Shown in pieces: positions 5,704 to 20,251 of a stretch of DNA of 64,000 bases. How positions within the stretch are numbered: the stretch's first letter is position 1; the number at the start of each line of letters is the position of its first letter. Under the pieces are notes generated by a model. That model saw only the letters and a list, made by a program, of their open reading frames with translations, had not been told where the DNA came from and did no database searches. The stretch is taken from positions 152,489 to 216,488 of the forward strand of contig CAWJQC010000004.1 in assembly GCA_963844965.1 (NCBI GenBank). Reading direction: 5' to 3'. This stretch comes from an uncultured bacterium. GTDB taxonomy: Bacteria; Patescibacteriota; Minisyncoccia; UBA6257; 2-01-FULL-56-20. Both the position numbers and the translations under genes were made by a program.

Positions 5704-6489
5704 TTAAAGCTGATATTTTCGCTTAAACCTTTTTATCGCCTCTCTAGCGCCAGGCAAAGCTGTGGTGTTGTACAACTTACTTAGGTTGTCAAGAAAACTC
5801 GGACCAAATGATTCCTCAAATAATTTAACAACGTCCTGGTTTTCAAGCGTCTCCCCGTTCAATAAAGCCTGCACCAATGCCTCCCAACACACGCGCTCGC
5901 TCTGCTGATTCTTAGTTGCCAACCTCTTTACCATGGCATTGACTAAAGAAACTTCTAGGTTATAGGAAAATCCTTGATCGCTTGCGACTGCCGTTTTGTA
6001 TGCACTTACCCGATCCTCGGGCCATCTTGATCGCTCTGCGTAAGCCACGGTGATTTCCCTGGAGAGCTTTTCCACTACGCCCTCGTTAAGCGCATCGAAC
6101 AAGCAGCCGAAATTACTGTTGCGGTATATGCTGCTGACTCGGCCCGACCTTCGGAAGTTGATGCCTTCTTCGCCCAACTTTCGAAACAGGCCGGATTGTT
6201 TATAGTCTACGTATTCTTCGGTTCTTCGATCTGGGTGTTCGTAGGTATTCCACATACAGATATTTCGACTTACTGCATGCGTTTCCTCGTGTGCCAGCAC
6301 AGCAAGCTGTATTAACTCTGCCCCTCCGCATTTTTCAAGTTTCGCTTTTGCTGACTTCCGCCTTTTCGGATCCAAGTCAGAATAATCATCAACACGGCTA
6401 AGCACAATGACGTTGTTTTCCGGATTGTAGCTATGACCTGGACCCGCTATTTTAGACACAAAGGTCGAAACCAAGTACCATTGTGTCAT
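5704..6489 (-). CDS. HExxH-motif protein, putative zinc metallopeptidase-like
   Basis: ORF with LAHEETHAV. I take the start to be MTQWY at 6489, because the upstream ORF extension is antisense to recombinase sequence and matches the spurious antisense ORF at 18688-18978. Confidence 0.4.
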   Translation of the reverse strand: MTQWYLVSTFVSKIAGPGHSYNPENNVIVLSRVDDYSDLDPKRRKSAKAKLEKCGGAELIQLAVLAHEETHAVSRNICMWNTYEHPDRRTEEYVDYKQSGLFRKLGEEGINFRRSGRVSSIYRNSNFGCLFDALNEGVVEKLSREITVAYAERSRWPEDRVSAYKTAVASDQGFSYNLEVSLVNAMVKRLATKNQQSERVCWEALVQALLNGETLENQDVVKLFEESFGPSFLDNLSKLYNTTALPGAREAIKRFKRKYQL

Positions 6490-7836
6490 GACTAACAAAA
6501 AGGGGCATCGTATCCCCATGCTCCGCCGCATTGAGCGGGGCGAGGCGCAGGGTATCATCTGTTGGAAACTAGATCGAGTGGCACGCAATATGCAGGACGG
6601 CGGAAAGACCATTGAACTCCTTAAACAAGGAGTGATCCAACATATTCGTGCCTTCGCAAGCAGTTACTATCCGCAAGACAACGTGCTCCTCATGTGCATA
6701 GAGTTCGGCATAGCTGACCAATATGTTCGCGATTTAAGTGCTAACACTTCGCGCGGATTGAGATACAAAGCAAGCTTGGGTATCTACCCCGGCCTCGCCC
6801 CGTTCGGATATATAAACGATCCACAGACCAAGACCGTTATCGTAAACCGCAAGAACGCAAAGCTCGTCAAAAAAACTTTTGAGATTTACGCGACGGGCAA
6901 AGTCCGCCTTGAAAATCTTGCCGATCTTTGGGAGAAGGCGGGCGTCATGTCTAAAGGCAACCGTCGCGTCCATATTTCAAGAATGTCTTTCATTCTGCAA
7001 AATCCTTTCTACTACGGACACTTTCGTTATTGCGGCGAGATACACGAAGGCAAGCATGAGCCAATCATTACGAAAGACCTCTACGATAAAGCGAACGCTG
7101 TCCTGCGAAGCCGAGGCCGTGTGCCGGACATTAAGAACGACCCAAGCCCTTACTGCGGCCTCCTGCGGTGCGGCGAGTGCGGTATGGGTATTACGGCCGA
7201 GGACAAGACAAAGCACCAAAAGAACGGCAACGTCCACCACTACGTTTATTACCGTTGTACCCGCAAATCGAAGACGCACAAGTGCCACGAAGCACCCGTG
7301 CGGAGCGAGATACTGGATCGGCAGTTGTCGGCTCTTATCGCCGACTACGCCATGCCCAAAGAGTGGGTAGCCCCTTTGTCGGCTATGCTCGACCAAGAGG
7401 CCATAAACGCCAAACAGACGGCGTCGGTGGCCGTTCAAGAGTTGCGGGAGCAGGTGCAAGACCTTACCCGCGACCTCGCCAGACTTACCGATGTCTATGT
7501 TGCACAAGACATAGAGCGAGATGACTACCTTGAGAGGCGTCGTTCGCTCATGTCGGAAAAGAAGTCCGTCGAGGAGCAAATAGCCCGTCTTGAACGAACC
7601 CCCTCCGCGTGGATTGAACCTGCCCGAAGTTGGATTCGGGACGCTTCAATACTGGACGAAACAGCAAAAAACTTCGACCTCCCCTCCAAAAAACTCTCCC
7701 TCCAAAAAATCTTCGGATTGAACCTCTTTCTTAAAAACCGTCGTATCGAATTTAACCCCATCAAACCTTACGCTTCGCTCCGCGAAGCGCGCGTAAATTT
7801 TTCTGAAACTGACTTACCTTTGAAACTGGAGCGGGT
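6488..7836 (+). pseudogene. Large serine recombinase, 5'-truncated. It lacks the catalytic N-terminal ~65 aa including the YxRxST serine.
   Basis: It aligns with the intact paralog at 18647-20251 from MLRRIERGEAQGIICWKLDRVARN (=MLALIEKGEAQGILCWKLDRLARN) onward. It retains the recombinase domain, the zinc ribbon (CGxCG…YYRC) and the coiled coil. An upstream in-frame stop lies at 6434-6436. Confidence 0.75.
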
Positions 7837-7905
7837 AACGGGAATCGAACCCGTGTGTCAACCTTGGCTCCGTCACCATAAGAAGGACTGCTTGCTTTTT
7901 CCGTG
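7837..7905 (-). other. tRNA 3'-half-like remnant (T-arm, acceptor 3' strand and CCA). Probable att-site remnant or pseudo-tRNA.
   Basis: The minus-strand sense reads …ACGGGTTCGATTCCCGTTACCCGCTCCA. No complementary 5' acceptor strand (GCGGGTA) was found. It is similar to the 3' half of tRNA-Gly at 20163-20236. Confidence 0.45.
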
Positions 7906-7909
7906 AGTG

Positions 7910-8248
7910 TATTTACAACACCGCTTGGACTTATTTTAACAAAAAACTCTGACTTTGGCGAGGCCGGAAGGGGTCGTTGAGGGGGTCGTTCCAGAACGAC
8001 TACCTTTTGAATTGAAAATACTCGGCGAGCACTGGCTTCTCTGCCTCTCGCGGAGTTTTTTCTTACCCCCGACAATACCTCCTTTGAGGAGGTTGAAGGT
8101 TGCCCCTTCGCCCCTCGCCTGCTGGCTCGGGGCTCGGGGCTTATATTGTTGTGGGCTGGATGCGCTAATTTTCCTCGGCTCCGCTCTCCTTGGCCGAGTT
8201 GAAAAACACGAACCGCAGTTGATGCGCGCGGGTGGGAGAGAAACTTTG
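7910..8248. repeat. Left copy of an ~340-bp imperfect inverted repeat (partner at 13150-13505)
   Basis: Hand alignment with the reverse complement of 13150-13505 gives roughly 80-90% identity. Example: gtgtatttacaacaccgcttggacttattttaac…ggtcgttgagggggtcgttccagaacgactacc…cctcggctccgctctccttggccgagttgaaaaa. Confidence 0.8.
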
Positions 8249-8312
8249 AGCCAAGGAGGAGCGGAGGCCTCGGAAAATCGGCCTCTTACTGATATAATGA
8301 ATATATAATGCT

Positions 8313-9185
8313 ATGCCGAAACATACCAGCAAAAAATTTGTCAGAAGCCCAGACAATGGCGGCCGATTGCGCATCCAGCCCAGCGACGTCGCGCTCCTCC
8401 GCGATTTGTCGGAATATCGTTTCCTGAACACCGAGCAGGTTTTGGCCCTGCACCACCGAGGTTTGCGCAACCTCCAACGCCGCTTGCACGATTTGTACCA
8501 CGCGGGGTATCTTGAACGCCCTCCCCAGCAGAACATCTCCGCTCTGCCGAAAGGTCATATCGTTTACGGCTTGGGGGCGAAGGGTGCGGAGCTTCTTTAT
8601 GAAAATCGGGAGGAGCGCGCCGAAAAACTCCGGCAAGTGAAGCTGAACCGCGAGACAACGTTTCCCTACATCGCCCACGCTTTGATGATTTCCCAGTTCC
8701 GCGCGGCCTTGACACTGGCGGCGGAAAAAACCGGAGGGAAGATGAAAGTTGCGAGATGGCGACAGGGCTTTGAATTGAAAAACTATTTGAAGCTCCGCGG
8801 CGGAACTCCCGAACTCATGCCGGACGCGTTTTTCGCGATTGAACAGGGCGACAGACGCTGGAACTTGTTTTTGGAAACCGACCGCTCCACGATGACACTT
8901 GACCGGTTTTTGGTAAAGCTCAAAACATACTGGAAATGGTGGTGGGAGGAAAAATACAAAGAACAGCTCGGCATCTCGCACTTCCGCGTGCTTACCATAA
9001 CCATTTCCGAAGAACGGAAGGAGAACCTTCTCCGCGTCGCCAAAAACGCCGACCCGAGAAGGCAAGGGAGCAACATGTTTTTGTTTATTTCCGAAAAAGA
9101 GTTTTCGCTGAAGAAGCCGGAGGCGGTGTTGTCTCCGGTGTGGCTTTCGCCGAGAGACGGATTGAAACATTCGTTTCTTGAATAA
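8313..9185 (+). CDS. Replication-relaxation (Replic_Relax) family protein
   Basis: N-terminal VALLRDLSEYRFLNTEQVLALHH pattern and ~290 aa, typical of PF13814 proteins from plasmids and integrative elements. Confidence 0.55.
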   Translation: MPKHTSKKFVRSPDNGGRLRIQPSDVALLRDLSEYRFLNTEQVLALHHRGLRNLQRRLHDLYHAGYLERPPQQNISALPKGHIVYGLGAKGAELLYENREERAEKLRQVKLNRETTFPYIAHALMISQFRAALTLAAEKTGGKMKVARWRQGFELKNYLKLRGGTPELMPDAFFAIEQGDRRWNLFLETDRSTMTLDRFLVKLKTYWKWWWEEKYKEQLGISHFRVLTITISEERKENLLRVAKNADPRRQGSNMFLFISEKEFSLKKPEAVLSPVWLSPRDGLKHSFLE

Positions 9186-9245
9186 ATTAGCGGCGGCCAC
9201 GAGGTCGAAGCGGCCGCCAGTTTTTTAAAAAGTTCCCTATACTTT

Positions 9246-10004
9246 ATGCCGCATACGCCGACGACAACGACAATAATCGTGGGCGCGCTCATGGTCATCG
9301 CCACCGCGCTTTTTTGCGTCGCGGCTTATTTTGTCATCAAATACGCGCTCCGCTTCGTCGGAAAAATGTTCAGCTTCGTAAACGAGGTGGCAAACATCGT
9401 CAGGGAAAGGAAAGACCGGTATCTTGTTGGGCCGGTTTGGGGATGGGACATACAAGACCGGATAGAAGAATGGGACAAGCCGGACGAGGAGTGGTCGGTT
9501 ATGGTCGAAGGAGCGGCGGGATACGGCGAAGAATTTTTGGAGCGCGTCGCTCGCCGCGCGCTTGACGAAAACATTCCCCGGCTTGTGGTGAGAAAGCGGA
9601 TTGTCTGGCCGTATCTGCGCCGAAAATGGCAACCGGTTCTTGTGATAACCAACAAGAAAATAAAGGGCTATCAAATGCTGATTGACGCGACAGACTACAC
9701 CGACCGCCTTGATGTTTGGTGGCGAGTTGATAAAGGCGACCGCGACCAACTGCCCTTGAGAGGGGCGGAAATACGGGAAAAGAGATTCGGGCTCGATTCG
9801 TCGGGCGTTCTTGAAGCCCAAGCCCAACAAGAGAAAAACTGGGTATTTCCCGAACAGATGACCGCTCTCGACAAGCAGGAGTGGGACAACTGCACTGGTT
9901 TGGTGCGCGATATTGTCAGAGCCGAGGTAAAACGGATGGCGGACGAAGTTCGTATCGGCGGCGGCGTGGCTGGCGGCGCGAAGGGATTTATTGACATCAA
10001 CTAA
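9246..10004 (+). CDS. Membrane-anchored hypothetical protein
   Basis: 252-aa ORF with a single N-terminal TM (IIVGALMVIATALFCVAAYFVI). Confidence 0.45.
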   Translation: MPHTPTTTTIIVGALMVIATALFCVAAYFVIKYALRFVGKMFSFVNEVANIVRERKDRYLVGPVWGWDIQDRIEEWDKPDEEWSVMVEGAAGYGEEFLERVARRALDENIPRLVVRKRIVWPYLRRKWQPVLVITNKKIKGYQMLIDATDYTDRLDVWWRVDKGDRDQLPLRGAEIREKRFGLDSSGVLEAQAQQEKNWVFPEQMTALDKQEWDNCTGLVRDIVRAEVKRMADEVRIGGGVAGGAKGFIDIN

Positions 10005-11583
10005 CTATGAAAAACGGATTTTTAAAAACAATTTTGGACTGGATACTGGACTGGCGTTATCCGCTCCCGCCCCCGCCGGAGCCGGACTTGCCTCTTTTTC
10101 CGAGCAGTCGGAGGAACCGATGGCGGACAAATTCAAACTGCCGAGGCCCAACGAGCTTGTTCTCGGCAGTACGACAACCAAAGGGCCGGACGGCAAGGCA
10201 GAAGGCAAGACAAAGGGCGTGTCGCAGGACGACCGCTCGACCCATTTTTACGTGGTGGGAGCGACCGGCACGGGCAAGACGAAATTTTTGGAAACCCTAA
10301 TCTTGCAGGACGCGATGAACGCGCACGGCTTTGGCATCGTGGACGCGCAGGGCGATTTGACGGAAGACATCAAGAGCTATCTTTTCATTCTTACCTTCCC
10401 AAACGAACCGGAGGAAACCGCCGAATTTGAAAAAGATTCGGAAAAAGCCCTCAAAAAAATTAAAAGATTTTTGAGCGAACGCGTCGTGCTGATAGACCCG
10501 TCCGACAGGGAAAGAACTGTTTGCTTTAATCCGCTTGAAAAAGTGGAGGGGCTTTCGCCCGCCGGAATCGCGAGCGAAGCAGTGGAGGCGTTCAAGAAAA
10601 TCTGGCATGACGCTTGGGGCGCGAGAATGGAAGACCTGCTCAAAAATTCTCTGATAGCCCTCGTCGAGAACGACCTCACCCTCGCCGAACTTCCCCTGTT
10701 TCTTTCCGACATCGGGGCGAGAAAAAAGATTCTGAAAAAAGTCATCCATCCCGTCTGCCGCCAGTATTTTGAAAAGTTCAATTCTTTGAGGTCGTCGTTG
10801 CAGGACGAGTGGGCGGAATCAACTCTGAACAAGGCCCGCGCCTTCATGTCCAACGACCACGTGCGGCAGATGCTCTCGGCGGTTAAAAGCACTTTCAACT
10901 TCCGCGACATAATGGACGACCGGAAAATTCTGCTGGTGAAGCTGAATCGCGGAAAATTGAAGGGCGACGCCGACCTGCTCGGCTCTTTGCTTCTCTCCAA
11001 AATCCAGATGGCCGCCTTTTCTCGGACGGACGTTCCGCAATCCGAACGCGTGCCGTTTTATCTTTACATCGATGAGTTTCAGAATTTTGCGACCGAGAGT
11101 TTTATCCAAACGCTCGCCGAAGCGAGAAAGTATGGCCTGTCGATTACGCTGGCTCATCAGAATCTCGCCCAGCTACCGCCGTCCCTGCGGGCGTCGATAC
11201 TCTCCAACTGCGGCTTGCAGGCGTACTTCCGCATCTCGCGCGACGACGCGAACATGCTAGCTAGGGAATCTCTCGCTTCCGTTTACGAAGAGCCGCCCGG
11301 CTGGGAGTTTTACGTCCGCTCGCTTCAAGAACTGCCGAGGCGCGAGTGCGTGATAAAACATAAAATCGCGGGAGGCGTGATTGCCGTCCACACCATCGGA
11401 CTGCCTACCCCTTGGGAATGGGCGAAGATGGACGAAAAGAAATTCTCGGAGGGACTGGCCGCGATGAATACCGGCGGCGCGTACATGCGCAAGCGCGAGG
11501 ACATAGAGAAAGAATATCGGTCGAGGCAAGAGGCCCTCCGATTTATGGACGAGCCGGAGAGTTTCTGGGAGCGGAAGGTTTAA
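9991..11583 (+). CDS. TraG/VirD4/TraD-like (TrwB-type) conjugative coupling ATPase
   Basis: P-loop VVGATGTGKT. Walker-B-like LYIDEFQNF. C-terminal ~500 aa typical of type IV coupling proteins. Confidence 0.6.
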   Translation: MTSTNYEKRIFKNNFGLDTGLALSAPAPAGAGLASFSEQSEEPMADKFKLPRPNELVLGSTTTKGPDGKAEGKTKGVSQDDRSTHFYVVGATGTGKTKFLETLILQDAMNAHGFGIVDAQGDLTEDIKSYLFILTFPNEPEETAEFEKDSEKALKKIKRFLSERVVLIDPSDRERTVCFNPLEKVEGLSPAGIASEAVEAFKKIWHDAWGARMEDLLKNSLIALVENDLTLAELPLFLSDIGARKKILKKVIHPVCRQYFEKFNSLRSSLQDEWAESTLNKARAFMSNDHVRQMLSAVKSTFNFRDIMDDRKILLVKLNRGKLKGDADLLGSLLLSKIQMAAFSRTDVPQSERVPFYLYIDEFQNFATESFIQTLAEARKYGLSITLAHQNLAQLPPSLRASILSNCGLQAYFRISRDDANMLARESLASVYEEPPGWEFYVRSLQELPRRECVIKHKIAGGVIAVHTIGLPTPWEWAKMDEKKFSEGLAAMNTGGAYMRKREDIEKEYRSRQEALRFMDEPESFWERKV

Positions 11584-11892
11584 CCGCGCCTATTTGACAA
11601 ACCGGACTTGAAAATGGTATCTTCTCCCCAGTTTCATTACCCCCGCCGTCCGCGCTAAAGCGGTGCGGCGGGAAAGCGGAACGCGAGGGAGATCGCGCTC
11701 TCGCCCGTTCCCTTGGATGGCTCCTCCTCGAACCGCCGAGAAGAAGGAATGAAACTTTTTCATAATAAAGAGTACAATAAAAGGACGTCACGGGACGTCC
11801 TTTTATTTTTTTGAACTGGAACATCTCGCAACCGAAATAGAGCCGCTCGGCAAAACCACCTTCCACGAGAAGGGCGTTTTATTCGGCATCAG

Positions 11893-13109
11893 GCCCAAAG
11901 ACCGCCGCCATCATATGTACGTTATCGGGCAGACCGGCACCGGCAAGTCCACGCTCTTGAAGAATATGGTGATACAGGACTTGCGGTTCGGCCACGGGGT
12001 GCGCGGTCATTGATCCCCACGGCGAACTGGTGGAAGACATTTTGAACTTCGTGCCGCGCTCGCCGCACGAACGAGGTCGTGTATTTCAATCCGGCGGACA
12101 CGGAAAACCCCATCGGCTTGAATATCCTTGAAGCCCGCGACGAGAACGAAAAACAGCTCGTCGCTTCGTCGCTCATCTCGGTATTCAAGCATTTGTGGAA
12201 AGGGTTTTGGGGTCCGCGGCTTGAGCACGTTTTCCATAACGCCATACTTGCTTTGATGGACACGCCGGGCAGTACCTTGCTCGGCATTTACCGGATGCTC
12301 GCGGACGACGAATACCGGCAGCAAGTCGTCGGCGCAGGTCAAAGACCCCGTCGTGAGATTGTTTTGGAAGGAGGATTTTGAGAAGTATCCGCCGCAACTT
12401 CAAAAAAGAAGTCGCCTCGCCGATTCAGAACAAAATCGGCCAGCTTCTCACGAGCACGCCCTTGCGAAACATCGTCGGCCAGTCCCGGAGCACGATTGAT
12501 CTGCGCTTCATTATGGACAACCAGAGAATTTTCCTTGTGAACCTCGCCAAAGGCACGGATCGGCGAGGACAAGGCAAATCTGCTCGGCTCGGTGCTCGTT
12601 ACGAAGCTGTACCTTGCCGCGCTTGAACGGCAGGACATGCCGGAGGAGGAACGCAAGGATTTTTATCTGTACATTGACGAGTTTCAGAACTTCTCCACGG
12701 ACGTTTTCCCGTCTATCTTGTCGGAAGCCAGAAAATATCGGCTTGAACCTCATTCTCGCCCATCAATATCTTATATCAGCTTTCGGAGAGCGTGAAGCAC
12801 TCGGTTTTCGGCAACGTCGGCACGCTCGCGTCTTTTCGCGTCGGAAGCATCGACGCGCGCGAACTGGCCGAGGAGTTCAGCCCGACTTTCACCAAAGAAG
12901 ACCTGGAACACACCGAAAACTATCACGCCTACCTCAAGCTGATGATAGACGGGAAGCGATCCACTCCTTTTTCCGCCGAAACGCTCCCGCCTCTCGCCCA
13001 TCAGGGCGACGAGGCGCAGAAAGAAACGCTCATTAGAGTTTCACGGGAGCGTTTCGCGTCAAAGCGAGAGGACATGACGGAGAAAATCGAAAAATGGTTT
13101 TCAAAGTAA
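11893..13109 (+). pseudogene. Degraded paralog of the coupling ATPase, with multiple frameshifts and stops
   Basis: P-loop HHMYVIGQTGTGKSTLLKNM, YLYIDEFQNFSTDVF and C-terminal homology are spread over at least 4 frames (ORFs 12079.., 12378.., 12592.., 12792..). Confidence 0.7.
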
Positions 13110-13149
13110 ACCATTTTTCATGTTTTTTTTCCTCGGCCTTGCGGCCTGA

Positions 13150-13505
13150 GCGGATTTTCTTTTTTTGTTTTCCTTCCCACCCGCGCGTAGAATACGATTC
13201 GGTTTTTTCAACTCGGCCAAGGAGAGCGGAGCCGAGGAAATACGCTAGAGACAGCCCAGCATACAATAGTAAGTCCCGAGCCCCGAGCAGCAGCGAGGGG
13301 CGAAGGGGCAAACCTTCACCCTCCCAAAAGGAGGTATTGTCGGGGGTGTCGAAAGGTCCGAGGCGGAGCGAAGAAGCCAATATCAGCGGAGTAATTTCAA
13401 TTCACGGGGTAGTCGTTCTGGAACGACCCCCTCAACGACTCCTTCGGGCCTCGCCAAAGTCAGAGATTTTGGTTAAAATAAGTCCAAGCGGTGTTGTAAA
13501 TACAC
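13150..13505. repeat. Right copy of the ~340-bp imperfect inverted repeat (partner at 7910-8248)
   Basis: See 7910-8248. Confidence 0.8.
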
Positions 13506-13665
13506 TCCATAACACAACTTAAAGGTTTTTTATTCACCGAACAATGGGCTTCCACAATGGAAGCCCATTGTTTTTCCGCAAAACCGCGCGCTTCGCGCGC
13601 GTGGAGTGTCAGGTTCAATCCGAAAATTTTTTGAGCGAACGATTTTTTGAGGGGTAAGGGGGTCG
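13506..13665 (-). repeat. Perfect inverted duplicate (~160 bp) of the 3' end of the recombinase gene at 20007-20167
   Basis: The reverse complement of 13506-13665 equals 20007-20167 base-for-base in the segments compared. These include the 13+3+13 palindrome caatgggcttcca-nnn-tggaagcccattg and the gcgcgc-ttcg-cgcgcg hairpin. It is a remnant 3' end of a recombinase gene pointing toward the inverted repeat. Confidence 0.85.
13537..13573 (+). terminator. Rho-independent terminator-like hairpin (caatgggcttccacaatggaagcccattg + TTTTTCC)
   Basis: Perfect 13-bp stem followed by a T5 run on the plus strand. The same element on the minus strand at 20099-20135 can terminate tRNA-Gly transcription. Confidence 0.5.
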
Positions 13666-13756
13666 CAGATAAAGATATAATGCTTGCCCCGCCCTTCCCG
13701 TGCGCGCATTATGTATTTTTGCCGATTTTGAAATCGGCAACTCCCTTATAACGATT

Positions 13757-16462
13757 TTACCTTTTCAGACCATATTTCTGTTCTCGTTTCTGGAAAGCTT
13801 CTGTGCCGCCCTCAAGAACGTCATAGATTGTCTTCCGCATCTCTATATTCTCTAACGAACCTTGTAGGGCATTAACCTTACTTTTATCATCAACGGATAA
13901 AGCAGTTATCAATTCTGAATCGCCCAAGACAACGATATTGGCGTTATGGGTGCAAATAATTATCTGCCTGTTCACTTTTTGCTCTCTAACCAAAGTTACT
14001 ACCTTCTCTGCTACGAATTTTGCGTCAAGGTGATCCTCCGGCTGGTCAATGATAAGTGGATGGTCGCCAGACAACAATATAAGTTCCACCAAAGTGCCGC
14101 ATCGCTCGCCGAACGACATACTATCTTTGCCGAGTATTTTAGTTCCATATTTAATGTGATTTTCTCCGGTTTCCGCATATTCATCTAGCCGCATTATTAG
14201 GTCTTCTCTAATAATTTGAGTATTCGGGTCTTCAAAAAACCACCGCAGAGTTTCTGTCTTTCCGCTACTATCTTGTAATTTTGGTATTCTATTTTCTTTA
14301 ATAGTGGAAATTATCTTTTCCCTTGCGACATCACCAGTAGCTTTGCCGACAAGTTCGTTTATTACATCTTTAACGTAATCCTCTCTGACGGGAGATTTTA
14401 TCTTAAAATTCTTTTCAATGACACCCTTTAACTCGTCGTTTGATTGGAGGAACTGCTCCTTTATCCACGGAGCAATATCACCACTTGGATCGTCCCATAC
14501 GGCAGTGATTGTTGTATCCTTAAAAGATTCGTTGAACCCGCCAATAAGTTTTTGGTTTTCCTTTATCCAGAGTTTTAGTTTTGCCGCCAGTTGATTCACG
14601 AGTTGGCTGTGTTGTTTCTTATCGCCTTCAAACTTTTTTAGGCGATTTTCAAGTTGCGATGATTGCTGGTCAATAAACTTAATTCTGTTGTTTCGCTTTT
14701 CTACCTCACTCTTTGTTATAGTAACGCCGTTTAGCTTACAGTAATCGGTAAACTGCTTTGTAAGTTCTGCGCTTTCTCTATCCAGTTCTTTTTTTACATC
14801 GGATTCTCTTACTTCCTTTACTGCTCCTTCTAAATTCTTAACTACGGAATCCAGTTGAGATTCTTTTAGGTTATAAAAATCTTCAATTTTTTTCTTTAGC
14901 GCATTTTTCTCCGCAAAAAGTTCTAAAACTTTATCTTTATCAACAGTAGTAGAAAGTTTAAGTTGCCCTGCGAATTTTTTAATGAGGACGGCTTGGGCTT
15001 CAATATCTTGGATCAAGCCATCAATCAACTGGCGTTTGGCTCTATTGCTTTTAATTTTTTCGGCAAGGTCTTTATATTCTTTTGTTTTTAACTTCTTAAA
15101 GTAAGATTCAATTTGTTCTCGTTCCGCTTCAAGTTTCTTTTTGTCTATTTCTACTTGGAGTTTATCGGCGTAACTGTTACGGGTAGTTTCCATTTCTACA
15201 GCCAACGCCTCTATTTCCTCTTTTGTCTTAATGAGTAGATCGGAATGAAGACGGCCTCCTATGTAATCCGCTATCTGTTTTGGGCTATCGGCTTTTTTCT
15301 CAATTTCTCCTTGTGTCCAGTATTCAACTTGAAAGGACGAAGTATAAAATGGGTCATTCCACTCTTTGACTTGACGCTTTAGAGATACTGGGTCTTCTGC
15401 TCCACTTTGAAAGATAACCTCAACTTCAAGATTGGGGAACTCCCTACTCAAAAATTCAATTAAGGAAAGTTTTTTGTCGCCTTTATCGGATGAAAACTTG
15501 TTAGCTACATATCCAATCAATTCTGCTAAAGCGGTCTTTCCGGCGGCTCGTGGCCCGATAACCGTGGTTAAATTCGGACTAAAAAACAGTTCTTGATTTA
15601 GAGTAATTGGTGGAAATATACTTCTCTTTGATTGATAACTTTGATGATTTAGCAATTTTGCGGATACAATCTGCGGATGAAGATAAAGTGGCGGACTATC
15701 ATCAAGACAAACTCTAATAACTGGCTCATAAATAATTTGTTTCAAACCTTCAAATGTTGGATCGGCCTTAATCCAACTATACTTCTTACCAATTACTTCC
15801 GTTGAGTGGCCGCTTTTGTATTGAAGTTTTGATCTATCGCAAGCGTCGGAAGTAATAATACACGGAAACTCCTGTTTAATCTTTGGGAACACTATTTTTC
15901 TGTAATCCTCAACCTGTTTTATGGCCGATACTTCAAAAATATCAACCAAAAACGCTAAATCTTTTTTTAGTGTCGCACGGACATCACTATCCAATTGTTC
16001 TATCCCGTTGGACTTGTTACCCGCGTGGAGTAAAACAAGCCCGTCTAACTCGTGTATTTTTTGACACGCGTCTTCAAAGTTACAGTAAATCTCCTTATCC
16101 CCCTTACCCTTAATATCGTTTTCCGAAAAATTAAGAGGGCAGAGTAATTTATCGTAAATAGTTTTTGAAGTAGTGGAAGAATCAAAAACTCCGATAATAT
16201 GTATCCCTTTATTGCCCTTATCGGTGCGCAGTTCAACGCCGGGGAGAATTGTTATATCTTTTCCTTTAGCAGCTTTTAGAACCTCGTCAATTCCTTTAAC
16301 GGTATGGTGGTCTGTAATAGCAATAACAGATATATTTTCTGTTATTGCCTTTTTCACTATGTCTTCCGCTTTGTCTTTACAGCCACTATCCCAATCATAA
16401 GAAGACGGGGTATGAACGTGCAAATCCCACTTTCTCCAAATTGAACCGCGGGGTGAATTCAT
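13757..16462 (-). CDS. PHP-family phosphoesterase fused to an SMC/Rad50/SbcC-like ABC ATPase with a long coiled-coil insertion. Putative nuclease-ATPase.
   Basis: 901 aa. N-terminal PHP motifs WDLHVHTPSSYD, ITDHH, LLHAGN, ITSDACD. Walker A GPRAAGKT at ~aa 300. ~350-aa Lys/Glu-rich coiled coil. Walker B LIIDQPEDHLD and H-loop ICTHNANI at the C-terminus. 6 bp from the methyltransferase gene. Confidence 0.7.
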   Translation of the reverse strand: MNSPRGSIWRKWDLHVHTPSSYDWDSGCKDKAEDIVKKAITENISVIAITDHHTVKGIDEVLKAAKGKDITILPGVELRTDKGNKGIHIIGVFDSSTTSKTIYDKLLCPLNFSENDIKGKGDKEIYCNFEDACQKIHELDGLVLLHAGNKSNGIEQLDSDVRATLKKDLAFLVDIFEVSAIKQVEDYRKIVFPKIKQEFPCIITSDACDRSKLQYKSGHSTEVIGKKYSWIKADPTFEGLKQIIYEPVIRVCLDDSPPLYLHPQIVSAKLLNHQSYQSKRSIFPPITLNQELFFSPNLTTVIGPRAAGKTALAELIGYVANKFSSDKGDKKLSLIEFLSREFPNLEVEVIFQSGAEDPVSLKRQVKEWNDPFYTSSFQVEYWTQGEIEKKADSPKQIADYIGGRLHSDLLIKTKEEIEALAVEMETTRNSYADKLQVEIDKKKLEAEREQIESYFKKLKTKEYKDLAEKIKSNRAKRQLIDGLIQDIEAQAVLIKKFAGQLKLSTTVDKDKVLELFAEKNALKKKIEDFYNLKESQLDSVVKNLEGAVKEVRESDVKKELDRESAELTKQFTDYCKLNGVTITKSEVEKRNNRIKFIDQQSSQLENRLKKFEGDKKQHSQLVNQLAAKLKLWIKENQKLIGGFNESFKDTTITAVWDDPSGDIAPWIKEQFLQSNDELKGVIEKNFKIKSPVREDYVKDVINELVGKATGDVAREKIISTIKENRIPKLQDSSGKTETLRWFFEDPNTQIIREDLIMRLDEYAETGENHIKYGTKILGKDSMSFGERCGTLVELILLSGDHPLIIDQPEDHLDAKFVAEKVVTLVREQKVNRQIIICTHNANIVVLGDSELITALSVDDKSKVNALQGSLENIEMRKTIYDVLEGGTEAFQKREQKYGLKR

Positions 16463-16468
16463 AAATTA

Positions 16469-17584
16469 TTACCTTTGTTTCAAAAACTCGTACTCAATCT
16501 TTGAAAATAAATTACTGGGTAAGTTAGACAATCTTTTTTTAGCAACCTTGATGGCCTGTTCTGATTTATCAATACCAATCCAATGTCGGCCAAGCTCTTG
16601 GGCGGCAACGAGGGTTGTCCCAGAGCCGCAAAAACAATCAAGAACTAAATCGTCTTTATTTGACGAAGCTTCAATAATAAACTTTAACAAGTCCAAACTT
16701 TTTTCTGTTGGATAATTGGGATACTGCGGGTCTTTAAATTCCCAAATATCCTGCATTTTCTTCCCTGTTCTCTCATCGAGGAAAATTTTTTTGCGTGGTA
16801 CTCCGCTTGCCGACCATTCAATAAGTCCTTGCTTATCCCATTCTTCTAAAATAGCCGGATTAGTTCGCCAATGGCGTCCTTTTGGTGGTTTTTGCCCTCG
16901 CCACTCCTTACTTGTATTCCCGTTTGATGTTTCTCCGGGTGCGTGGAGTGGGATTGTTGTATATCGCCGTCCGTCTTTATCAACTTTCTTAAACAAGCGA
17001 TCCTCGTCTTCCTCGGAGAATGAAACGTGTGGATCATTCCAAATCGGGTTTTCTGATTTGGAGTAAAAAAGTATCAAATCCTTGATATTGCCGTAGGCCT
17101 TACGATGAAAATTTTTCGGGTTACACTTAATGCGAGTAATATCGTTACGAAAACTTTTGCGACCAAAAACTTCATCCATTATAAGTTTCACATAGTGGCC
17201 GATTTTATAATCAATGTGAAGGTAAATTGACCCACGCTCGGATAGAAGTTCGCGCAAAAAAATCAGGCGTTCGCGTAGAAATTCTAAAAATTCCGCACCA
17301 ATTAACGTATCGCTATATGCAATCTCATCGCTATTGCTACTACTGATTGTATTGGCACGCCCCTCGCTTATTTTGAAATGGCCATTGGTTGCAAATGGTG
17401 GATCAATATAAATCAAATCAACCTTACCCCCATAATTATCAAGTAACGTTTTGAGAGTGGAAAGATTATCGCCATGAACAAGTTTATTTTTTGCCCCTTT
17501 GCCGGAAAGCACTTTCAAGTTAGCTCTTGGAGTGCTTTCAAGAATTTCACGCTCACCCTTTTTGCTTTCATAACTAAGAAGCAT
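16469..17584 (-). CDS. Site-specific DNA methyltransferase (N6-adenine/N4-cytosine, β-class permuted: DPPF then FCGSGTT)
   Basis: Motif IV IYIDPPF precedes motif I DCFCGSGTTLVAA. ParB-nuclease-free Mod/PvuII-like architecture. Confidence 0.8.
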   Translation of the reverse strand: MLLSYESKKGEREILESTPRANLKVLSGKGAKNKLVHGDNLSTLKTLLDNYGGKVDLIYIDPPFATNGHFKISEGRANTISSSNSDEIAYSDTLIGAEFLEFLRERLIFLRELLSERGSIYLHIDYKIGHYVKLIMDEVFGRKSFRNDITRIKCNPKNFHRKAYGNIKDLILFYSKSENPIWNDPHVSFSEEDEDRLFKKVDKDGRRYTTIPLHAPGETSNGNTSKEWRGQKPPKGRHWRTNPAILEEWDKQGLIEWSASGVPRKKIFLDERTGKKMQDIWEFKDPQYPNYPTEKSLDLLKFIIEASSNKDDLVLDCFCGSGTTLVAAQELGRHWIGIDKSEQAIKVAKKRLSNLPSNLFSKIEYEFLKQR

Positions 17585-17590
17585 ATAAAA

Positions 17591-18373
17591 TTATATTTGA
17601 TATAAGAATTCGCGCAGGACGAGTGCGCTCATAATATTCTCGTCCTTTAACTCGCCAGCGACCGCTTTATACATTTTGTTGTTGCCCTTGATATAAAGTA
17701 CCCCATCTAAAATGGCCACCTTAACCGCTTTAACACCCTTCGCTTTGATAGTGGCGATTGCGTCGTTAAATTGAGCATTTTGATGACCCCCAAAATCGGT
17801 TAAAAATTTTGCCTCTCCAATAACATACTTCCCGTTAAAACGCCCTATCAAATCAAGTCCTTTGTTATGATTGTAGTTCAAGTATTTTTTAGCAAAGGCC
17901 ATCGTTTCCGCATCTCCCGCATCAAGAACTGCGTTTCCTTTTGCCACTAAAAATTCCGACATCTTCAGCGGTTGCACTCCGAGAGTTTTTCTATTCAGCC
18001 AGCGGCGGAAAAGTGGGCCAATTTGTCGGTTTGTTTCTTTTGGCTCTGATGAACGAGAGAAAATTTGCTTAAGACCCATCTCATACAATCGGCCACATAG
18101 ACGAGCAACCGTCGCCGGATTGCGCTTTAATGCTTCTTTGTCGCGCTTAAGATAAGCAATGTAGGAATCTTTAATAGGAAATAAATCAAGCTTCAAAAGA
18201 TTTTCAAGAAGCGCAACATTGTTCCTTTTTTCAAACGCCTGTTCTACGTTTTTCCAAAGCGCCTTGTTAATGTCGCGAATTCCCTCTGGAATTGTTGGAT
18301 ATACTTGAAACAAATCATCGAGGTAGCTTCGCTGATTTGCGTAATCAATACTTAATTTTGTCCAATGGTTCAT
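17591..18373 (-). CDS. Putative Type II restriction endonuclease with a PD-(D/E)xK core (LDLIG…GEAKF)
   Basis: 260-aa ORF between the C-protein and methyltransferase genes, with 4-6 bp intergenic gaps. D…ExK motif GLDLIGRFNGKYVIGEAKFLTD. Confidence 0.6.
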   Translation of the reverse strand: MNHWTKLSIDYANQRSYLDDLFQVYPTIPEGIRDINKALWKNVEQAFEKRNNVALLENLLKLDLFPIKDSYIAYLKRDKEALKRNPATVARLCGRLYEMGLKQIFSRSSEPKETNRQIGPLFRRWLNRKTLGVQPLKMSEFLVAKGNAVLDAGDAETMAFAKKYLNYNHNKGLDLIGRFNGKYVIGEAKFLTDFGGHQNAQFNDAIATIKAKGVKAVKVAILDGVLYIKGNNKMYKAVAGELKDENIMSALVLREFLYQI

Positions 18374-18377
18374 GGTT

Positions 18378-18590
18378 TTATTTTATTAAGTCATCAACTG
18401 CGACATTTAGGGCTTTGGCTATTTTCGCCAAAGTTTCTATTGTCGGATTCTTATTAACACCCGATTCAATTTTAATCATGGTGTTATAGGTAACATCCGC
18501 CAATTTGGACAAACGATCTTGTGAAATGCCGAGTTTACTACGGTATTTTTTGATATTCTCGGCAATCCTTGATTTGTTGCTTGCTCCCAT
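18378..18590 (-). CDS. Controller (C) protein, XRE-family HTH regulator of the R-M operon
   Basis: 70 aa with an HTH (KLGISQDRLSKLADVTYNTMIKIESG). First gene of the C-R-M operon. Confidence 0.75.
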   Translation of the reverse strand: MGASNKSRIAENIKKYRSKLGISQDRLSKLADVTYNTMIKIESGVNKNPTIETLAKIAKALNVAVDDLIK

Positions 18591-18650
18591 AGTAATATAG
18601 TAGTATGATTGAACTAATAGCGAGTGATTTTGTTTAATCTATTACTATGG
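18587..18650. promoter_or_regulatory. Symmetric divergent control region. A 10-bp perfect inverted repeat (ccatagtaat … attactatgg) contains both start codons (C gene and recombinase); it is a candidate C-box/operator.
   Basis: 18587-18596 ccatagtaat and 18641-18650 attactatgg, separated by a 44-bp AT-rich spacer. Confidence 0.45.
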
Positions 18651-20251
18651 TATCAAAAAATACACCGCACGTAAATACCTATTTTCTCTACGCCCGCAAA
18701 TCCACCGACGTTGAAGACAAGCAAGTCCGGTCTATTGAGGACCAGCTTGCCGTATTGCGGGCGTTGGCCAAAGGCGAAGGACTAACTATCGCCAGAGAGT
18801 TTATTGAGCGGCAATCGGCCAAGAAGCCGGGCCGCCCCGCTTTTAACGAAATGCTCGCCTTGATTGAAAAAGGCGAAGCGCAAGGAATCCTCTGTTGGAA
18901 ACTTGACCGCTTGGCTCGCAATCCGGTTGATAGCGGCCGCATATCTTGGCTCTTACAGCAGGGCGTTATCCGGCACATCCAAACGCACGACCGAAGCTTT
19001 TATCCTACGGACAATGTTTTGATGACGAGCGTAGAGTTCGGGATGGCGAACCAGTTTATCCTTGATTTGAAAGTGAACACCAAACGCGGCCTTGACGCCA
19101 AAGCCAAGCGCGGCGACTATCCGGGCCATGCTCCCATCGGCTACATCAACGACACCCGCGTAAAGCTCGTGGCCGTTGATAAAAGGAAATCCAAAATTAT
19201 CAGGCGCGCGTTTGAACTCTACGCCGAGGGCAACTGGCGTTTGGAAGACGCCGCCAAATTCCTTTTGGAGAACGGTATTAAAACGAAAGGCGACAAACCC
19301 TTGTCGCGCGACCGAATCTCTTATCTCTTGACCAATCCTTTTTATTACGGCAATTTCCGCTACAACGGGGAACTTTACGAAGGCAATCACGAGCCGATAA
19401 TTACGAAGCAACTTTTTGACAAAGTTCAGGCGGCGTTGAAAGCGCGAAGCAAGCCGCCCTCAAGTCCCGCCAATCACCCGCAAGCTCTTTGCGGGGCTAT
19501 CCGGTGCGGCACTTGCGGCATGATGATAACCGCCGAGCGTAAGATAAAACACCAGAAAAACGGCAATGTCCACGAATACACTTATTATCGTTGTACCCGC
19601 AAGAACAAAGCGATCCGGTGCTCCGAGCCGCCTATCCGCGAGGACGCGCTTAATCGGCAGTTATCGAACCTTATCAAAAAGTATGCTTTGCCGGACGATT
19701 GGGCGGCGGAGCTATTAAAAATGTCCGAGCGGGACGAACAGGAAGCCGCCCAATCAACGACCGCCCTCGTCCGAGAGGCGCGGGACGAGATACAGGCCAT
19801 TTCTCAAAAACTCCAACGCCTTCTTGACGCATATCTTGACCAAGATATTGAGCGGGAAAGCTACCGCTTCGAGAAGGCAAACCTTCTCTCCCGCAAGAAG
19901 TCGTTGGAGGAGAAAATCGGCAATTTGGAGCAAGGGGCGATTGCTTGGGTTGAACCCCTGCGCGATTGGATAAAAGACGCTCAAACGCTGAACGAAATGA
20001 CGGAAACGACCCCCTTACCCCTCAAAAAATCGTTCGCTCAAAAAATTTTCGGATTGAACCTGACACTCCACGCGCGCGAAGCGCGCGGTTTTGCGGAAAA
20101 ACAATGGGCTTCCATTGTGGAAGCCCATTGTTCGGTGAATAAAAAACCTTTAAGTTGTGTTATGGAGCGGGCGAAGGGAATCGAACCCTCGTCTATAGCT
20201 TGGGAAGCTATCGTACTGCCACTGTACTACGCCCGCAAGATAGCCCACTAA
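18647..20251 (+). CDS. Large serine recombinase (resolvase catalytic domain, recombinase domain, zinc ribbon, coiled coil). Intact.
   Basis: 534 aa. N-terminal YARKSTDVEDKQVRSIEDQ…GLTIAREFIERQSAKK…PAFNEMLALIEKGEAQGILCWKLDRLARN. Zinc ribbon CGAIRCGTCGMM…YYRCTRK. Confidence 0.85.
   Translation: MVSKNTPHVNTYFLYARKSTDVEDKQVRSIEDQLAVLRALAKGEGLTIAREFIERQSAKKPGRPAFNEMLALIEKGEAQGILCWKLDRLARNPVDSGRISWLLQQGVIRHIQTHDRSFYPTDNVLMTSVEFGMANQFILDLKVNTKRGLDAKAKRGDYPGHAPIGYINDTRVKLVAVDKRKSKIIRRAFELYAEGNWRLEDAAKFLLENGIKTKGDKPLSRDRISYLLTNPFYYGNFRYNGELYEGNHEPIITKQLFDKVQAALKARSKPPSSPANHPQALCGAIRCGTCGMMITAERKIKHQKNGNVHEYTYYRCTRKNKAIRCSEPPIREDALNRQLSNLIKKYALPDDWAAELLKMSERDEQEAAQSTTALVREARDEIQAISQKLQRLLDAYLDQDIERESYRFEKANLLSRKKSLEEKIGNLEQGAIAWVEPLRDWIKDAQTLNEMTETTPLPLKKSFAQKIFGLNLTLHAREARGFAEKQWASIVEAHCSVNKKPLSCVMERAKGIEPSSIAWEAIVLPLYYARKIAH
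20163..20236 (-). tRNA. tRNA-Gly (anticodon CCC)
   Basis: Reverse complement GCGGGCGTAGTACAGTGGCAGTACGATAGCTTCCCAAGCTATAGACGAGGGTTCGATTCCCTTCGCCCGCTCCA. 7-bp acceptor stem, D-arm GTAC/GTAC, anticodon loop TTCCCAA, T-loop TTCGATT, encoded CCA. It lies antisense inside the recombinase 3' coding end. Confidence 0.85.

Follow-up and report, generated by a model that had tools for sequence, protein, structure and literature searches.

Gene content of the locus

The 64-kb stretch of DNA analysed here (the window) carries, at the 3' end of a tRNA-Gly(CCC) gene, a 12.3-kb integrative and mobilisable element with a large serine recombinase (LSR), which extends from 7905 to 20167 and of which a 161-bp inverted repeat is a part (Table 1). 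In the intact recombinase rec2, the resolvase catalytic domain PF00239 with the active-site Ser covers residues 13-157 (E 2e-20), PF07508 and PF13408 are matched as well, with four Cys that are invariant in the family, and the motif YARKSTD is nearly invariant in it. The AF2 model of rec2 has helices at residues 350-398 and 403-430, i.e., the coiled coil of LSRs, and a homologue of rec2 matches SprA in its whole-protein fold (9y66, 9dxh; E 1e-20 to 1e-23), with further fold matches to Bxb1, phiC31, and A118. Proteins identical to the LSR and the PHP-ATPase of the element were found on no other contig on record.

The mobilisation module, segA, has small ORFs in addition to the genes in Table 1; it also follows an LSR with contiguous attachment site in locus L083 (LSR-Y-c-X, see below) and is absent from some family members. 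The presence of the LSR, attL and attR, the Replic_Relax protein, and the coupling protein, with no further T4SS genes in 7905-20167, is that of an integrative mobilisable element. The HTH gene occupies the same position beside the LSR in L001, L002, L083, L084, L085, and L086, where the cargo is unrelated, making it a conserved core partner of the LSR, with its product as a candidate regulator. Next to the element, rec1 represents an older one; its Pfam Resolvase match is limited to profile positions 55-141, the Recombinase and Zn_ribbon domains are present, the protein is 49% identical to rec2 (tblastn), and its 3' end (Y1) reaches TGGAG at 7827.

Table 1. Genes and sites in and beside the element (positions in the window)
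Feature	Position	Strand	Basis or remark
rec1, remnant of an older element, N-terminally truncated LSR	6488-7906	+	Without the catalytic Ser region
B flank of attL	7827-7904	-	41-nt tRNA 3' fragment (7827-7867, 78% identical to tRNA-Gly; direct repeat D2), then 37 nt
X, P' arm of the attachment site at attL	7905-8243	+	First 45 nt are native recombinase tail codons and stop
segA, mobilisation module	8244-13168	+	Pfam PF13814, PF10412, PF02534, PF12696
Replic_Relax relaxase-like gene (segA)	8313-9185	+	Pfam
ORF in segA	9246-10004	+	
T4SS coupling protein, TrwB/TraG-type (segA)	9991-11583	+	Pfam
X', P' arm of the internal attP copy, inverted X	13169-13507	-	Inverted repeat with X
Y', left arm, P arm of the internal attP copy	13505-13665	-	tblastn: rec2 residues 455-507, 100%; H1 and H2
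Conserved element just inside Y' (ATATAATGCTTGCCCC...GCGCATTATG)	13666-13720		Also in both modules of L083 (direct repeat D6)
Low-GC defence cargo of segB	13757-18373	-	GC 0.37-0.42 vs. 0.52 in the flanks
Ppl-like PHP-ATPase	13757-16462	-	Pfam; PADLOC Ppl 1e-33
N6/N4 methyltransferase	16469-17584	-	Pfam; PADLOC MTase_II
Tsp45I-type restriction enzyme	17591-18373	-	Pfam; PADLOC REase_II
HTH gene divergent from the recombinase	18378-18590	-	Pfam HTH_3
rec2, intact large serine recombinase	18647-20251	+	Pfam Resolvase, Recombinase, Zn_ribbon_recom
Y, right arm, P arm of attR	20007-20167	+	Hairpin H2 20100-20132; core GAG 20165-20167
tRNA-Gly(CCC), B' half of the target	20163-20236	-	ARAGORN; Rfam 70.5 bits

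Inverted repeats and attachment sites

In a repeat search of the whole window, 13505-13665 and 20007-20167 proved to be perfect reverse complements of each other (161 nt, 100% complementary, spacing 6341 nt), and a perfect match of this length in 64 kb cannot have arisen by chance. The first-pass annotation had described this repeat correctly except for one base at its left end (13505 instead of 13506), and both palindromic hairpins it had noted, H1 and H2, are present in each arm; H2 was assessed by explicit pair count, RNAalifold alone having recovered only 4 H2 pairs. Rfam recognised no known RNA family in the arms, the tRNA being its sole match. The right arm comprises the last 52 in-frame codons, before the junction, of the 534-aa LSR ORF. 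To that extent it does hold the recombinase 3' end as annotated, but the ORF does not end within the arm: the LSR gene spans attP, has no stop of its own, and passes through the whole tRNA in antisense to 20251. Residues 1-507 are element-encoded, and residues 508-534 are antisense tRNA in place of a native 14-residue tail. The right arm ends at TGGAG (20163-20167); on the minus strand, these five bases (CTCCA) form the 3' end of tRNA-Gly(CCC), and the CCA end of this tRNA comes from element sequence. The suggestion that the repeat ends at a recombination core beside the tRNA was borne out, and a comparison of the three junctions found the same three bases, GAG, at attL (7905-7907), the internal site, and attR.

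The attachment site attP consists of Y-core-X, where X carries the recombinase frame on for 14 conserved codons and a stop. Its recombination with B-core-tRNA therefore yields attL (B-GAG-X, at 7905) and attR (Y-GAG-tRNA, at 20167) and swaps the native tail for the tRNA antisense. The internal site is a complete inverted attP copy (X'-CTC-Y', 13182-13665), with Y' and X' meeting at the core CTC (13505-13507). X and X' form a second inverted pair, 7905-8243 vs. 13169-13507, with an identity of 83.6% overall and 90% over the core-proximal 136 nt, so the neighbouring repeats of ~85% identity reported initially are real; the attL copy of X is told apart from X' from 7941 on (AACAAAAAACTC vs. AACCAAAATCTC). 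X extends to promoter-like TATAAT boxes upstream of the relaxase gene in an alignment with L083 and L002, and the minus strand of X' encodes CIYNTAWTYFNQNL and a stop in the recombinase frame (13504 to 13460). Since X' (13182-13507), just outside the left arm, is kept across the family and recurs inverted at 7905-8243, the element proper extends over 7905-20167, with the left arm as one half of the internal attP copy.

This anatomy of sites, repeat pairs, and ends is secure. An IS-like unit with the arms as its terminal inverted repeats, a reading prompted by 'minimal' units of 1.9 kb, was rejected because the outer left flank is conserved and coding. In an insertion sequence or transposon the repeats are outermost, with target DNA or a target-site duplication outside, whereas here there is no duplication and the true left end is at 7905. 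Neither is X the native sequence upstream of a tRNA, because it recurs beside unrelated tRNAs. In L029 and L076, 10-12 nt separate the B-X junction from the 5' end of the following tRNA; in the window, neither ARAGORN nor Rfam called a tRNA in 7827-7904, which is not a functional tRNA. The empty chromosomal site would be expected to read ...TTTTTCCGTGAG joined directly to CGGGCGAAGGGAATCG.

The exchanged recombinase tail and the tRNA targets

X is coding sequence. The tail follows the motif [LIV][YLF]xx[AVI]RT[YFH]Fxx N x stop, the codon-position entropies are 0.31/0.00/1.49 for its Thr and 1.76/0.10/1.75 for its Leu, the motif Arg is encoded by CGA, AGA, and CGT, and the stop follows 8-9 codons after this Arg in 57/74 loci. 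The native tail forms the protein end in 13/120 database homologues, so the Y-c-X state is common, and LSR-Y-core-X is contiguous in L027, L083-L086, L158, L159, and L166. In a structure model (P0015, residues 494-513) the native tail completes a confident terminal helix, whereas residues 504-534 of the AF2 model of rec2, with the tRNA-encoded tail, have a pLDDT <50 and are predicted to be disordered, a contrast that partly reflects the composition of the alignments. With its tRNA-encoded tail, the recombinase may still have full activity. The native C-terminus and stop across the junction in X had been missed by the first-pass annotation.

A T-loop-like TCGAAC motif is located at +17 from the core in X and at +13 in the tRNA itself, and in 41/47 loci the distance between the core and such a motif in X exceeds that in the tRNA by exactly 4 bp; the core common to attP and attB is 3-6 nt long in five elements. 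This offset is the spacing expected of P-type vs. B-type half-sites, and for the LI integrase the corresponding shift is reportedly ~5 bp. The targets are the 3' end or T-arm of at least 22 tRNAs, plus tmRNA.

Conservation of the inverted attP copy

Related elements with the same inverted feature occur in ~90 independent assemblies, with an arm identity of 75-100%. The LSR reads into a tRNA in 115/167 loci; in 67 of these 115, an inverted arm is present distally and the flank outside it encodes the native tail, in 10 more the distal arm is at a contig end, and of the loci with 10 kb of sequence upstream just 5 are without it. Our survey shows that a CPR-wide family keeps a complete inverted attP copy between two cargo bays, the inverted arm being present in >90% of family loci with enough upstream sequence. 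With such constancy, the repeat does not record a second, recent integration event, initially offered as its alternative origin. The arms have a median length of 159 nt (range 111-181) across loci with recombinases only 50-55% identical and 22 tRNA targets. A phage origin was set aside, as no relative in IMG/VR exceeds 28% identity. Chains of modules are found in L083, and further tandem or chained elements are rec1 in the window and L142. In L001 the tRNA lies inside both arms, which does not fit the general scheme.

The identity of the arms is a continuum, with 100% in 13/67 and at least 99% in 21/67 loci. The identities of X/X' and Y/Y' are uncoupled (X 100% and Y 76% in L177; Y 100% and X 84% in the window), which fits local gene conversion or module exchange. 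Among the diverged distal arms, 13/44 contain stops or frameshifts and the pooled pN/pS between arms is 0.60; therefore, protein-level selection on the spare copy, which we had considered, is not visible, and the diverged distal arms appear to evolve roughly neutrally.

Comparison with known recombination systems

The LSR elements and prophages (A118/LI Int, SPbeta SprA, phiC31, Bxb1) resemble the present element in the Resolvase, Recombinase, and zinc-ribbon domains with a long coiled coil, in the recombinase gene beside attP, in a short shared core, and in P- and B-type half-sites with one distal motif at different spacing (4 bp here). They differ in that here the gene crosses attP without its own stop, at least 22 tRNAs and tmRNA are targeted instead of a protein-coding gene or a unique site, and a full inverted attP copy lies within the element. 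No homologue of a recombination directionality factor (RDF), which serine integrases, unidirectional in attP x attB recombination, need for excision, was recognised. The transposons Tn4451/Tn4453 (TnpX) and Tn5397 (TndX) are likewise mobilisable, with an LSR gene at one end, and form a circular intermediate whose joint alters recombinase expression; to our knowledge, they have no long inverted repeats, tRNA T-arm target, or internal joint copy, all of which are seen here.

In the archaeal SSV1-type fuselloviruses, attP lies inside the gene for the tyrosine integrase, and integration into a tRNA gene splits that gene. A recombinase gene spanning attP, a tRNA target, and an altered integrated gene copy are thus common to both systems, whereas the chemistry differs (tyrosine vs. 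serine) and integration leaves the SSV gene in two large pieces, compared with the exchange of only the last 14 codons here; moreover, we know of no inverted spare of the lost gene part in SSV proviruses, such as is present here. The yeast 2-micron plasmid carries FLP/FRT in 599-bp perfect inverted repeats. It corresponds to the circle that can be predicted from the integrated form of our element in that both encode a recombinase and have two unique segments and long identical inverted repeats, each with a target; however, FLP is a tyrosine recombinase, the plasmid is non-integrating, and no contig here closes into a circle with both copies.

The serine invertase switches are those of Hin, Gin, Cin, and Pin; PinQ is the subject of PMC12529663. 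Such switches have in common with the element that inverted repeats delimit a segment and carry the crossover sites at their outer ends, that the enzyme is of the serine family, and that inversion swaps the 3' end of a gene, the last being our prediction for the element. In phage P1, the C segment is delimited by inverted repeats of 0.6 kb whose outer ends hold the cix sites. With ~190 aa, the Hin/Gin/Cin/Pin enzymes are small; they depend on an enhancer and on Fis, are encoded outside the DNA that inverts, and their switching affects a gene for a tail fibre or a flagellin. In the present element, in contrast, a 520-aa LSR lies inside the segment and the gene end to be switched would be its own; instead of a small invertase with a C-terminal HTH, the enzyme is an LSR of 507+ aa with recombinase and zinc-ribbon domains.

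Possible roles of the inverted attP copy

Because the segment 13505-20167 is bounded by identical arms, it could invert without any change at the junctions, and inversion would rejoin the recombinase to its native end; the native C-terminus and stop in X give such a putative switch a plausible purpose. The locus is probably best explained as a tRNA-inserted LSR element with an inverted spare attP, in which integration locks the element and inversion unlocks it. Integration via the gene-proximal attP would lock it by amputating the terminal helix of the recombinase. Inversion, whether the arms undergo homologous recombination or the recombinase itself works on both cores, would give the body of the recombinase gene a native 3' end back from the spare copy and so unlock the element. 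Gene conversion during such exchanges would keep the arms identical in live elements, and once it lapses the spare arm would decay neutrally. L150 is found in the opposite orientation, i.e., tRNA-Leu(+), core, and Y', then the LSR directed away from the tRNA. For the element in the window, neither the flipped nor the circular junction pattern was found in metagenome contigs. In 115 loci the LSR reads towards the tRNA, compared with ~10 where it runs into X, a strong bias, and flipping, if it happens, would be rare or transient. As far as we know, the attP of serine integrases such as phiC31, Bxb1, and A118 recombines only with attB, and an attP x attR inversion is without precedent.

A further-reaching scenario, which we put forward only tentatively and regard as rather unlikely in its entirety, is that of a self-locking integrase. 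Integration would remove the terminal helix and freeze the element, a RecA- or recombinase-driven inversion across the perfect repeat would re-arm it via the spare end, and the recombinase family would read the universal tRNA T-loop, so that almost any tRNA or tmRNA gene could be a target.

Alternatively, the internal inverted attP could act in a free circle, with the integrated repeat being a passive consequence, a possibility to which we give limited credence. Two inverted attP regions would split the circle into two unique segments, as in the 2-micron plasmid, and could permit the element to integrate either way round, or the recombinase to drive flipping and amplify the copies. This would agree with the position of both attP copies around the LSR in L086 (X'c'Y' ... 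LSR-Y c X), L159, and L158, the module chains of L083, the common Y-c-X state with the native tail, and the replication-relaxation protein encoded in segA, and L150 could equally stem from integration via the second attP. However, the 167 loci include no closed circular contig, just inverted terminal k-mer overlaps, no replication initiator was identified, we know of no attP x attP recombination by LSRs, and the use of the gene-proximal attP in >90% of integrated copies would be left unexplained.

A further model builds on the invertible defence cassette raised as a possibility by the first-pass annotation. It treats the arms as terminal inverted repeats of an autonomous cassette of defence genes (13505-20167) that inverts or transposes, the recombinase flipping it to vary R-M and PHP-ATPase expression. 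The perfect arms enclose both cargo and recombinase, serine recombinases such as Hin, Gin, and Cin invert DNA between inverted sites, and the uncoupled Y/Y' and X/X' identities are indicative of module-like behaviour. What stands of this proposal is that the bracketed segment could invert; the left arm, however, is not the end of a mobile cassette, as the flank beyond it (X') is element sequence that is conserved in the family and continues the recombinase frame. Moreover, the arms enclose the recombinase gene alone in 26/67 standard loci, so the phase variation of R-M/PHP-ATPase is not the point and the feature is not specific to defence cargo, which differs freely between relatives. The operon and the divergent promoter region would flip together, so no change in expression is expected, and there were essentially no cases of a Y-bounded unit standing alone at a tRNA and lacking X'. 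We consider such a cassette very unlikely.

It is highly improbable that a second integration or a rearrangement left behind another, truncated recombinase copy whose 3' end survives as the left arm, a relic with no function: tandem and chained elements do occur (rec1, L083, L142) and diverged distal arms evolve neutrally, but the same extent, partner X', and position in >90% of loci would be unexpected of a random relic, as would 100% identity in 13 independent elements. An assembly artefact (a collapsed, chimeric, or misjoined repeat) can practically be excluded, although contigs often stop at k-mer length within the arms (L009, 141 nt, k141; L123 and L124, 123 nt) or 50 nt into X' and L173 resembles a path artefact, since unique sequence surrounds the repeat, 13-20 kb inside the window, unrelated assemblies of the SPAdes, MEGAHIT, IDBA-type, and long-read kinds share the design, one of them (OY970382, L068) being a closed chromosome, and arms that are 75-99% identical with indels cannot arise by misassembly.

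Significance for CPR bacteria

Full-text literature searches found no description of this element family, which we regard as previously undescribed and, with >4300 homologues, very abundant. In CPR/Patescibacteria, whose mobile elements have been little characterised, it ferries cargo genes for defence and surface proteins, and it represents natural integrases aimed at a motif found in every tRNA gene. The paired perfect repeats account for frequent breaks of CPR assemblies at tRNA genes, and gene callers give the recombinases spurious tRNA-antisense C-termini. The relations between the sites are unusual, as the recombinase gene extends across attP, the P' arm serves as coding sequence for the protein tail and at the same time mimics the tRNA T-loop at attP-type spacing, and an inverted spare attP is kept. 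If the inversion model is true, the family would provide a new solution to the directionality of serine integrases, in which DNA inversion is used instead of an RDF.

Architecture of the element

The exact inverted repeat reported by the first-pass annotation was confirmed: a 6341-nt interval separates two arms of 161 nt that are 100% complementary, and these do contain the recombinase 3' end, the right arm being the 3' part of the 534-codon open reading frame of rec2, which is identified as a large serine recombinase (LSR) by its Resolvase, Recombinase and zinc-ribbon domains. TGGAG closes this right arm, here called Y (the P arm of attP; Y' is its inverted copy), and overlaps the 3' end of tRNA-Gly(CCC); the frame has no stop within the arm and continues antisense across the entire tRNA gene. 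The neighbouring inverted pair, put at about 85% identity, was also recovered; it abuts the 161-nt pair and is 84% identical overall and 90% beside the junction, with complete identity only over the first ~35 nt beside the core. The three junction readings therefore place the left arm next to a sequence X (the P' arm; X' is its inverted copy), which occurs again 5.3 kb leftward in the opposite orientation.

Relatives share the general order B-c-X-segA-X'-c'-Y'-segB-Y-c-tRNA, in which B is the left flank of attL, segA and segB are two cargo bays (segB holding cargo, an HTH gene and the LSR), and the core c measures 3-6 nt (GAG in the window). This layout defines attP as Y-c-X and attB as B-c-tRNA, and it makes the middle site a second attP, complete but inverted. 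X and X' form a second inverted pair in L029, L076, L066, L021 and 11 further loci (16 counting the window), with arms of 148-360 nt; half of these loci (8 of 16) have X arms at 100% identity. Since B in L029 and L076 is a 10-12-nt spacer before the 5' end of the next tRNA gene, these elements lie precisely between two tRNA genes, with the left end at the B/X boundary. In the window the intact element spans 7905-20167, and B is a remnant left by an older family member. The remnant's rec1 is an N-terminally truncated recombinase 49% identical to rec2, and its 41-nt tRNA fragment comes from a different tRNA-Gly-like 3' end; rec1 has no surviving inverted spare arm.

The element is an integrative mobilisable element, and its enzyme a bona fide LSR. 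The cargo of segA is unrelated in other loci. In segB, the PHP-ATPase matches the PADLOC defence model 'Ppl' (E 1e-33), chiefly in its C-terminal ATPase part, and shares one operon with the Tsp45I-type R-M system, at a GC of 0.37-0.42 vs ~0.52 in the surrounding genome region. A 65-70-aa HTH gene stands divergently beside the recombinase in cargo-bearing relatives, irrespective of cargo; it is probably a regulator of the element, or a candidate directionality factor, and not the C protein belonging to the R-M system. Directly inside the distal arm, the window and both L083 modules share ~45 nt that contain a pair of ATAATGC boxes in inverted orientation (ATATAATGCTTGCCCC...GCGCATTATG); this stretch could be a divergent promoter or operator.

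Coordinates of features in the window and in surveyed loci
Feature	Locus	Position	Strand	Content
Intact element	window	7905-20167		
Older-element remnant	window	6488-7904		truncated rec1, own Y end, TGGAG, tRNA fragment + 37 nt
X/X' pair	window	7905-8243 / 13169-13507		
Y'/Y arms	window	13505-13665 / 20007-20167		
Junction	window	7905	+	(older remnant)-GAG-X
Junction	window	13665->13372	-	Y-TGGAG-X, no tRNA between
Junction	window	20167	+	Y-TGGAG-tRNA
segA	window, L083			relaxase-like protein, type IV coupling protein
segB	window			low-GC Ppl-like PHP-ATPase, Tsp45I-type R-M system, HTH gene, recombinase
PHP-ATPase	window	13757-16462	-	
rec2	window	18647-20251	+	
tRNA-Gly(CCC)	window	20163-20236	-	
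Hairpin	window	20100-20132 and 13540-13572		
ATAATGC-box element	window	13666-13720		
ATAATGC-box element	L083	167-209, 11309-11351		
HTH gene	window	18378-18590	-	
HTH gene	L001	9697-9903		
HTH gene	L002	9753-9962		
HTH gene	L083	3860-4069		
HTH gene	L084	1680-1877		
HTH gene	L085	6786-6998		
HTH gene	L086	5377-5583		
Repeat with tRNA-Thr	L001	1601-1831 / 11392-11622		
tmRNA or unrecognised RNA-gene insertion	L010	11508-11901		
tmRNA or unrecognised RNA-gene insertion	L011	4335-4723		
tmRNA or unrecognised RNA-gene insertion	L033, L036, L038, L067	just 3' of LSR		

Recurrence across the family

Recombinase homologues number more than 4300 in metagenomes, and the named ones belong to Patescibacteria/CPR. 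In both of the first homologous loci retrieved, whose assemblies were unrelated, the recombinase 3' end was repeated perfectly in inverted orientation over 160-193 nt, and a scripted survey covered 167 loci (collected: 80 from genomes and 80 from metagenomes). The LSR reads into a tRNA in 115 of the 167; 67 of these 115 have an inverted distal arm with X beyond it, and in 10 more the arm is cut by the contig end. Of 23 armless loci, 18 have too little upstream sequence; the other 5 have no arm although 10 kb of upstream sequence is available. Many contigs break off exactly one k-mer inside an arm (L009, L123 and L124) or 50 nt into X' (position 51; L026, L034, L064, L072, L075 and L014). Arms measure 111-181 nt (median 159) and are 1.4-10.3 kb apart, enclosing the recombinase gene alone in 26 loci. 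Targets comprise 22 tRNA isoacceptors and tmRNA, the tmRNA 3' end being the insertion site of some members; others sit where an RNA gene without ARAGORN or Rfam match has a tRNA-like 3' terminus, with a recurrent ...CCTTCGCTTA...GGCTAGACTGTATC. L001 does not match the general scheme: its perfect 193-nt repeat has the entire tRNA-Thr plus 13 nt in both arms, X is lacking, and a 10-kb unit apparently lies between two halves of a tRNA-like gene.

Identity of the Y arms varies continuously between 100% and 75% (100% in 13 of the 67 loci, at least 99% in 21, below 90% in 18) and is uncoupled from that of the X pair (X 100% and Y 76% in L177; Y 100% and X 84% in the window). This pattern fits gene conversion that recurs locally, or whole modules exchanged among related elements, and it does not fit one duplication that later decayed. 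In L083 and L159, more than two modules are chained at recombinase cores, for example as segB-segA-segB; the L083 chain has a relaxase and coupling protein in segA, and identity between its two segB modules is just ~72%. Such chains suggest that related elements accrete in tandem or exchange modules.

A recombinase gene that spans attP

In the frame of the recombinase, X codes for a conserved peptide followed by a stop codon (CIYNTAWTYFNQNL in the window; family consensus [LIV][YLF]xx[AVI]RT[YFH]FxxNx, then stop). Its variation is codon-like: entropy over the codon positions is 0.31/0.00/1.49 for Thr and 1.76/0.10/1.75 for Leu, the tail Arg codon is CGA, AGA or CGT, and the stop falls 8-9 codons past Arg in 57 of 74 loci. 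Among the C-termini of 120 database homologues, 13 have the native tail and at least 64 a tRNA-antisense 'G[IVF]EP' tail. In a structure comparison, the enzyme shares its overall fold with SprA, the integrase of SPbeta. AlphaFold places the tail of a native-tail homologue within a confident terminal helix (residues 494-513), and the tRNA-encoded residues 504-534 of the window protein are predicted to be disordered; alignments of the two models differ.

The coding sequence also contains a hairpin at codons W-A-x-L-x-x-A-H, which compensatory changes preserve across 65 family members (alignment A4, columns 47-67). Paired cells make up 80% vs 31-50% when slid, and covariation is 0.52 vs 0.17 (0 of 500 shuffles reached the observed level). 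On the tRNA-sense strand of the window the hairpin is followed by a T-run, so it may terminate tRNA transcripts that enter the element.

X carries a T-loop-like TCGAAC whose bases are also the codons for A-R-T. Compared with the T-loop motif of the target tRNA, its distance from the core is greater by exactly 4 bp in 41 of 47 loci; both X copies of the window's subfamily have TTGGAC. In serine integrases, attP and attB half-sites are reportedly told apart by such a shift of the zinc-ribbon-domain motif, as in the LI integrase-DNA structure (4KIS). The spacing agrees with a P-type role for X and a B-type role for the tRNA, which would also explain how one family lands on so many tRNAs.

Proposed inversion model and alternatives

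Because the bounding arms are identical, inversion of 13505-20167 would alter no junction sequence, whether the arms recombine homologously or the recombinase acts at both cores. It would swap which arm carries the recombinase body: at present the body is joined to the arm and then antisense tRNA, and when flipped it would be joined to the arm, native tail and stop. On this basis we infer a lock-and-unlock model, in which integration via the gene-proximal attP would truncate the terminal helix of the enzyme and inversion would restore it. L150 has the flipped arrangement: tRNA-Lys(+) and tRNA-Leu(+) precede the core and Y', and the recombinase that follows faces away from the tRNA. An element integrated via its second attP would equally produce this picture. 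The model is tempered, however, by a strong bias in the survey towards recombinase-into-tRNA orientation, and by a spare copy that looks neutral where the arms have diverged (13 of 44 disrupted, pN/pS 0.60). The flipped junction of the window element was not found in the metagenome contigs searched, and we know of no attP x attR recombination by serine integrases.

The main alternative is that the inverted attP serves the free circle, in a 2-micron-like layout permitting integration in either orientation or amplification. This agrees with most of the data. LSR-Y-c-X is contiguous in L027, L083-L086, L158, L159 and L166, which are free, tandem or flipped forms; no contig among the survey loci closes into a circle. 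The invertible defence cassette suggested at first reading is contradicted by the family survey. An assembly artefact, and the left arm as relic of a one-off, recent second integration, are excluded by the recurrence of the arm throughout the family.

Relation to known integrases

No published description of the element family was found in a literature search. The gene-spanning attP is one departure from known systems, and SSV-type tyrosine integrases are to our knowledge its sole parallel. The family departs further in a P' arm that is both protein-coding and T-loop-mimicking, in a serine integrase family aimed at tRNA/tmRNA 3' ends, and in a conserved inverted internal attP that creates two nested repeat-bounded bays. 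The repeats systematically cause CPR genome assemblies to break at tRNA genes, and gene callers then report recombinases with tRNA-antisense C-termini.
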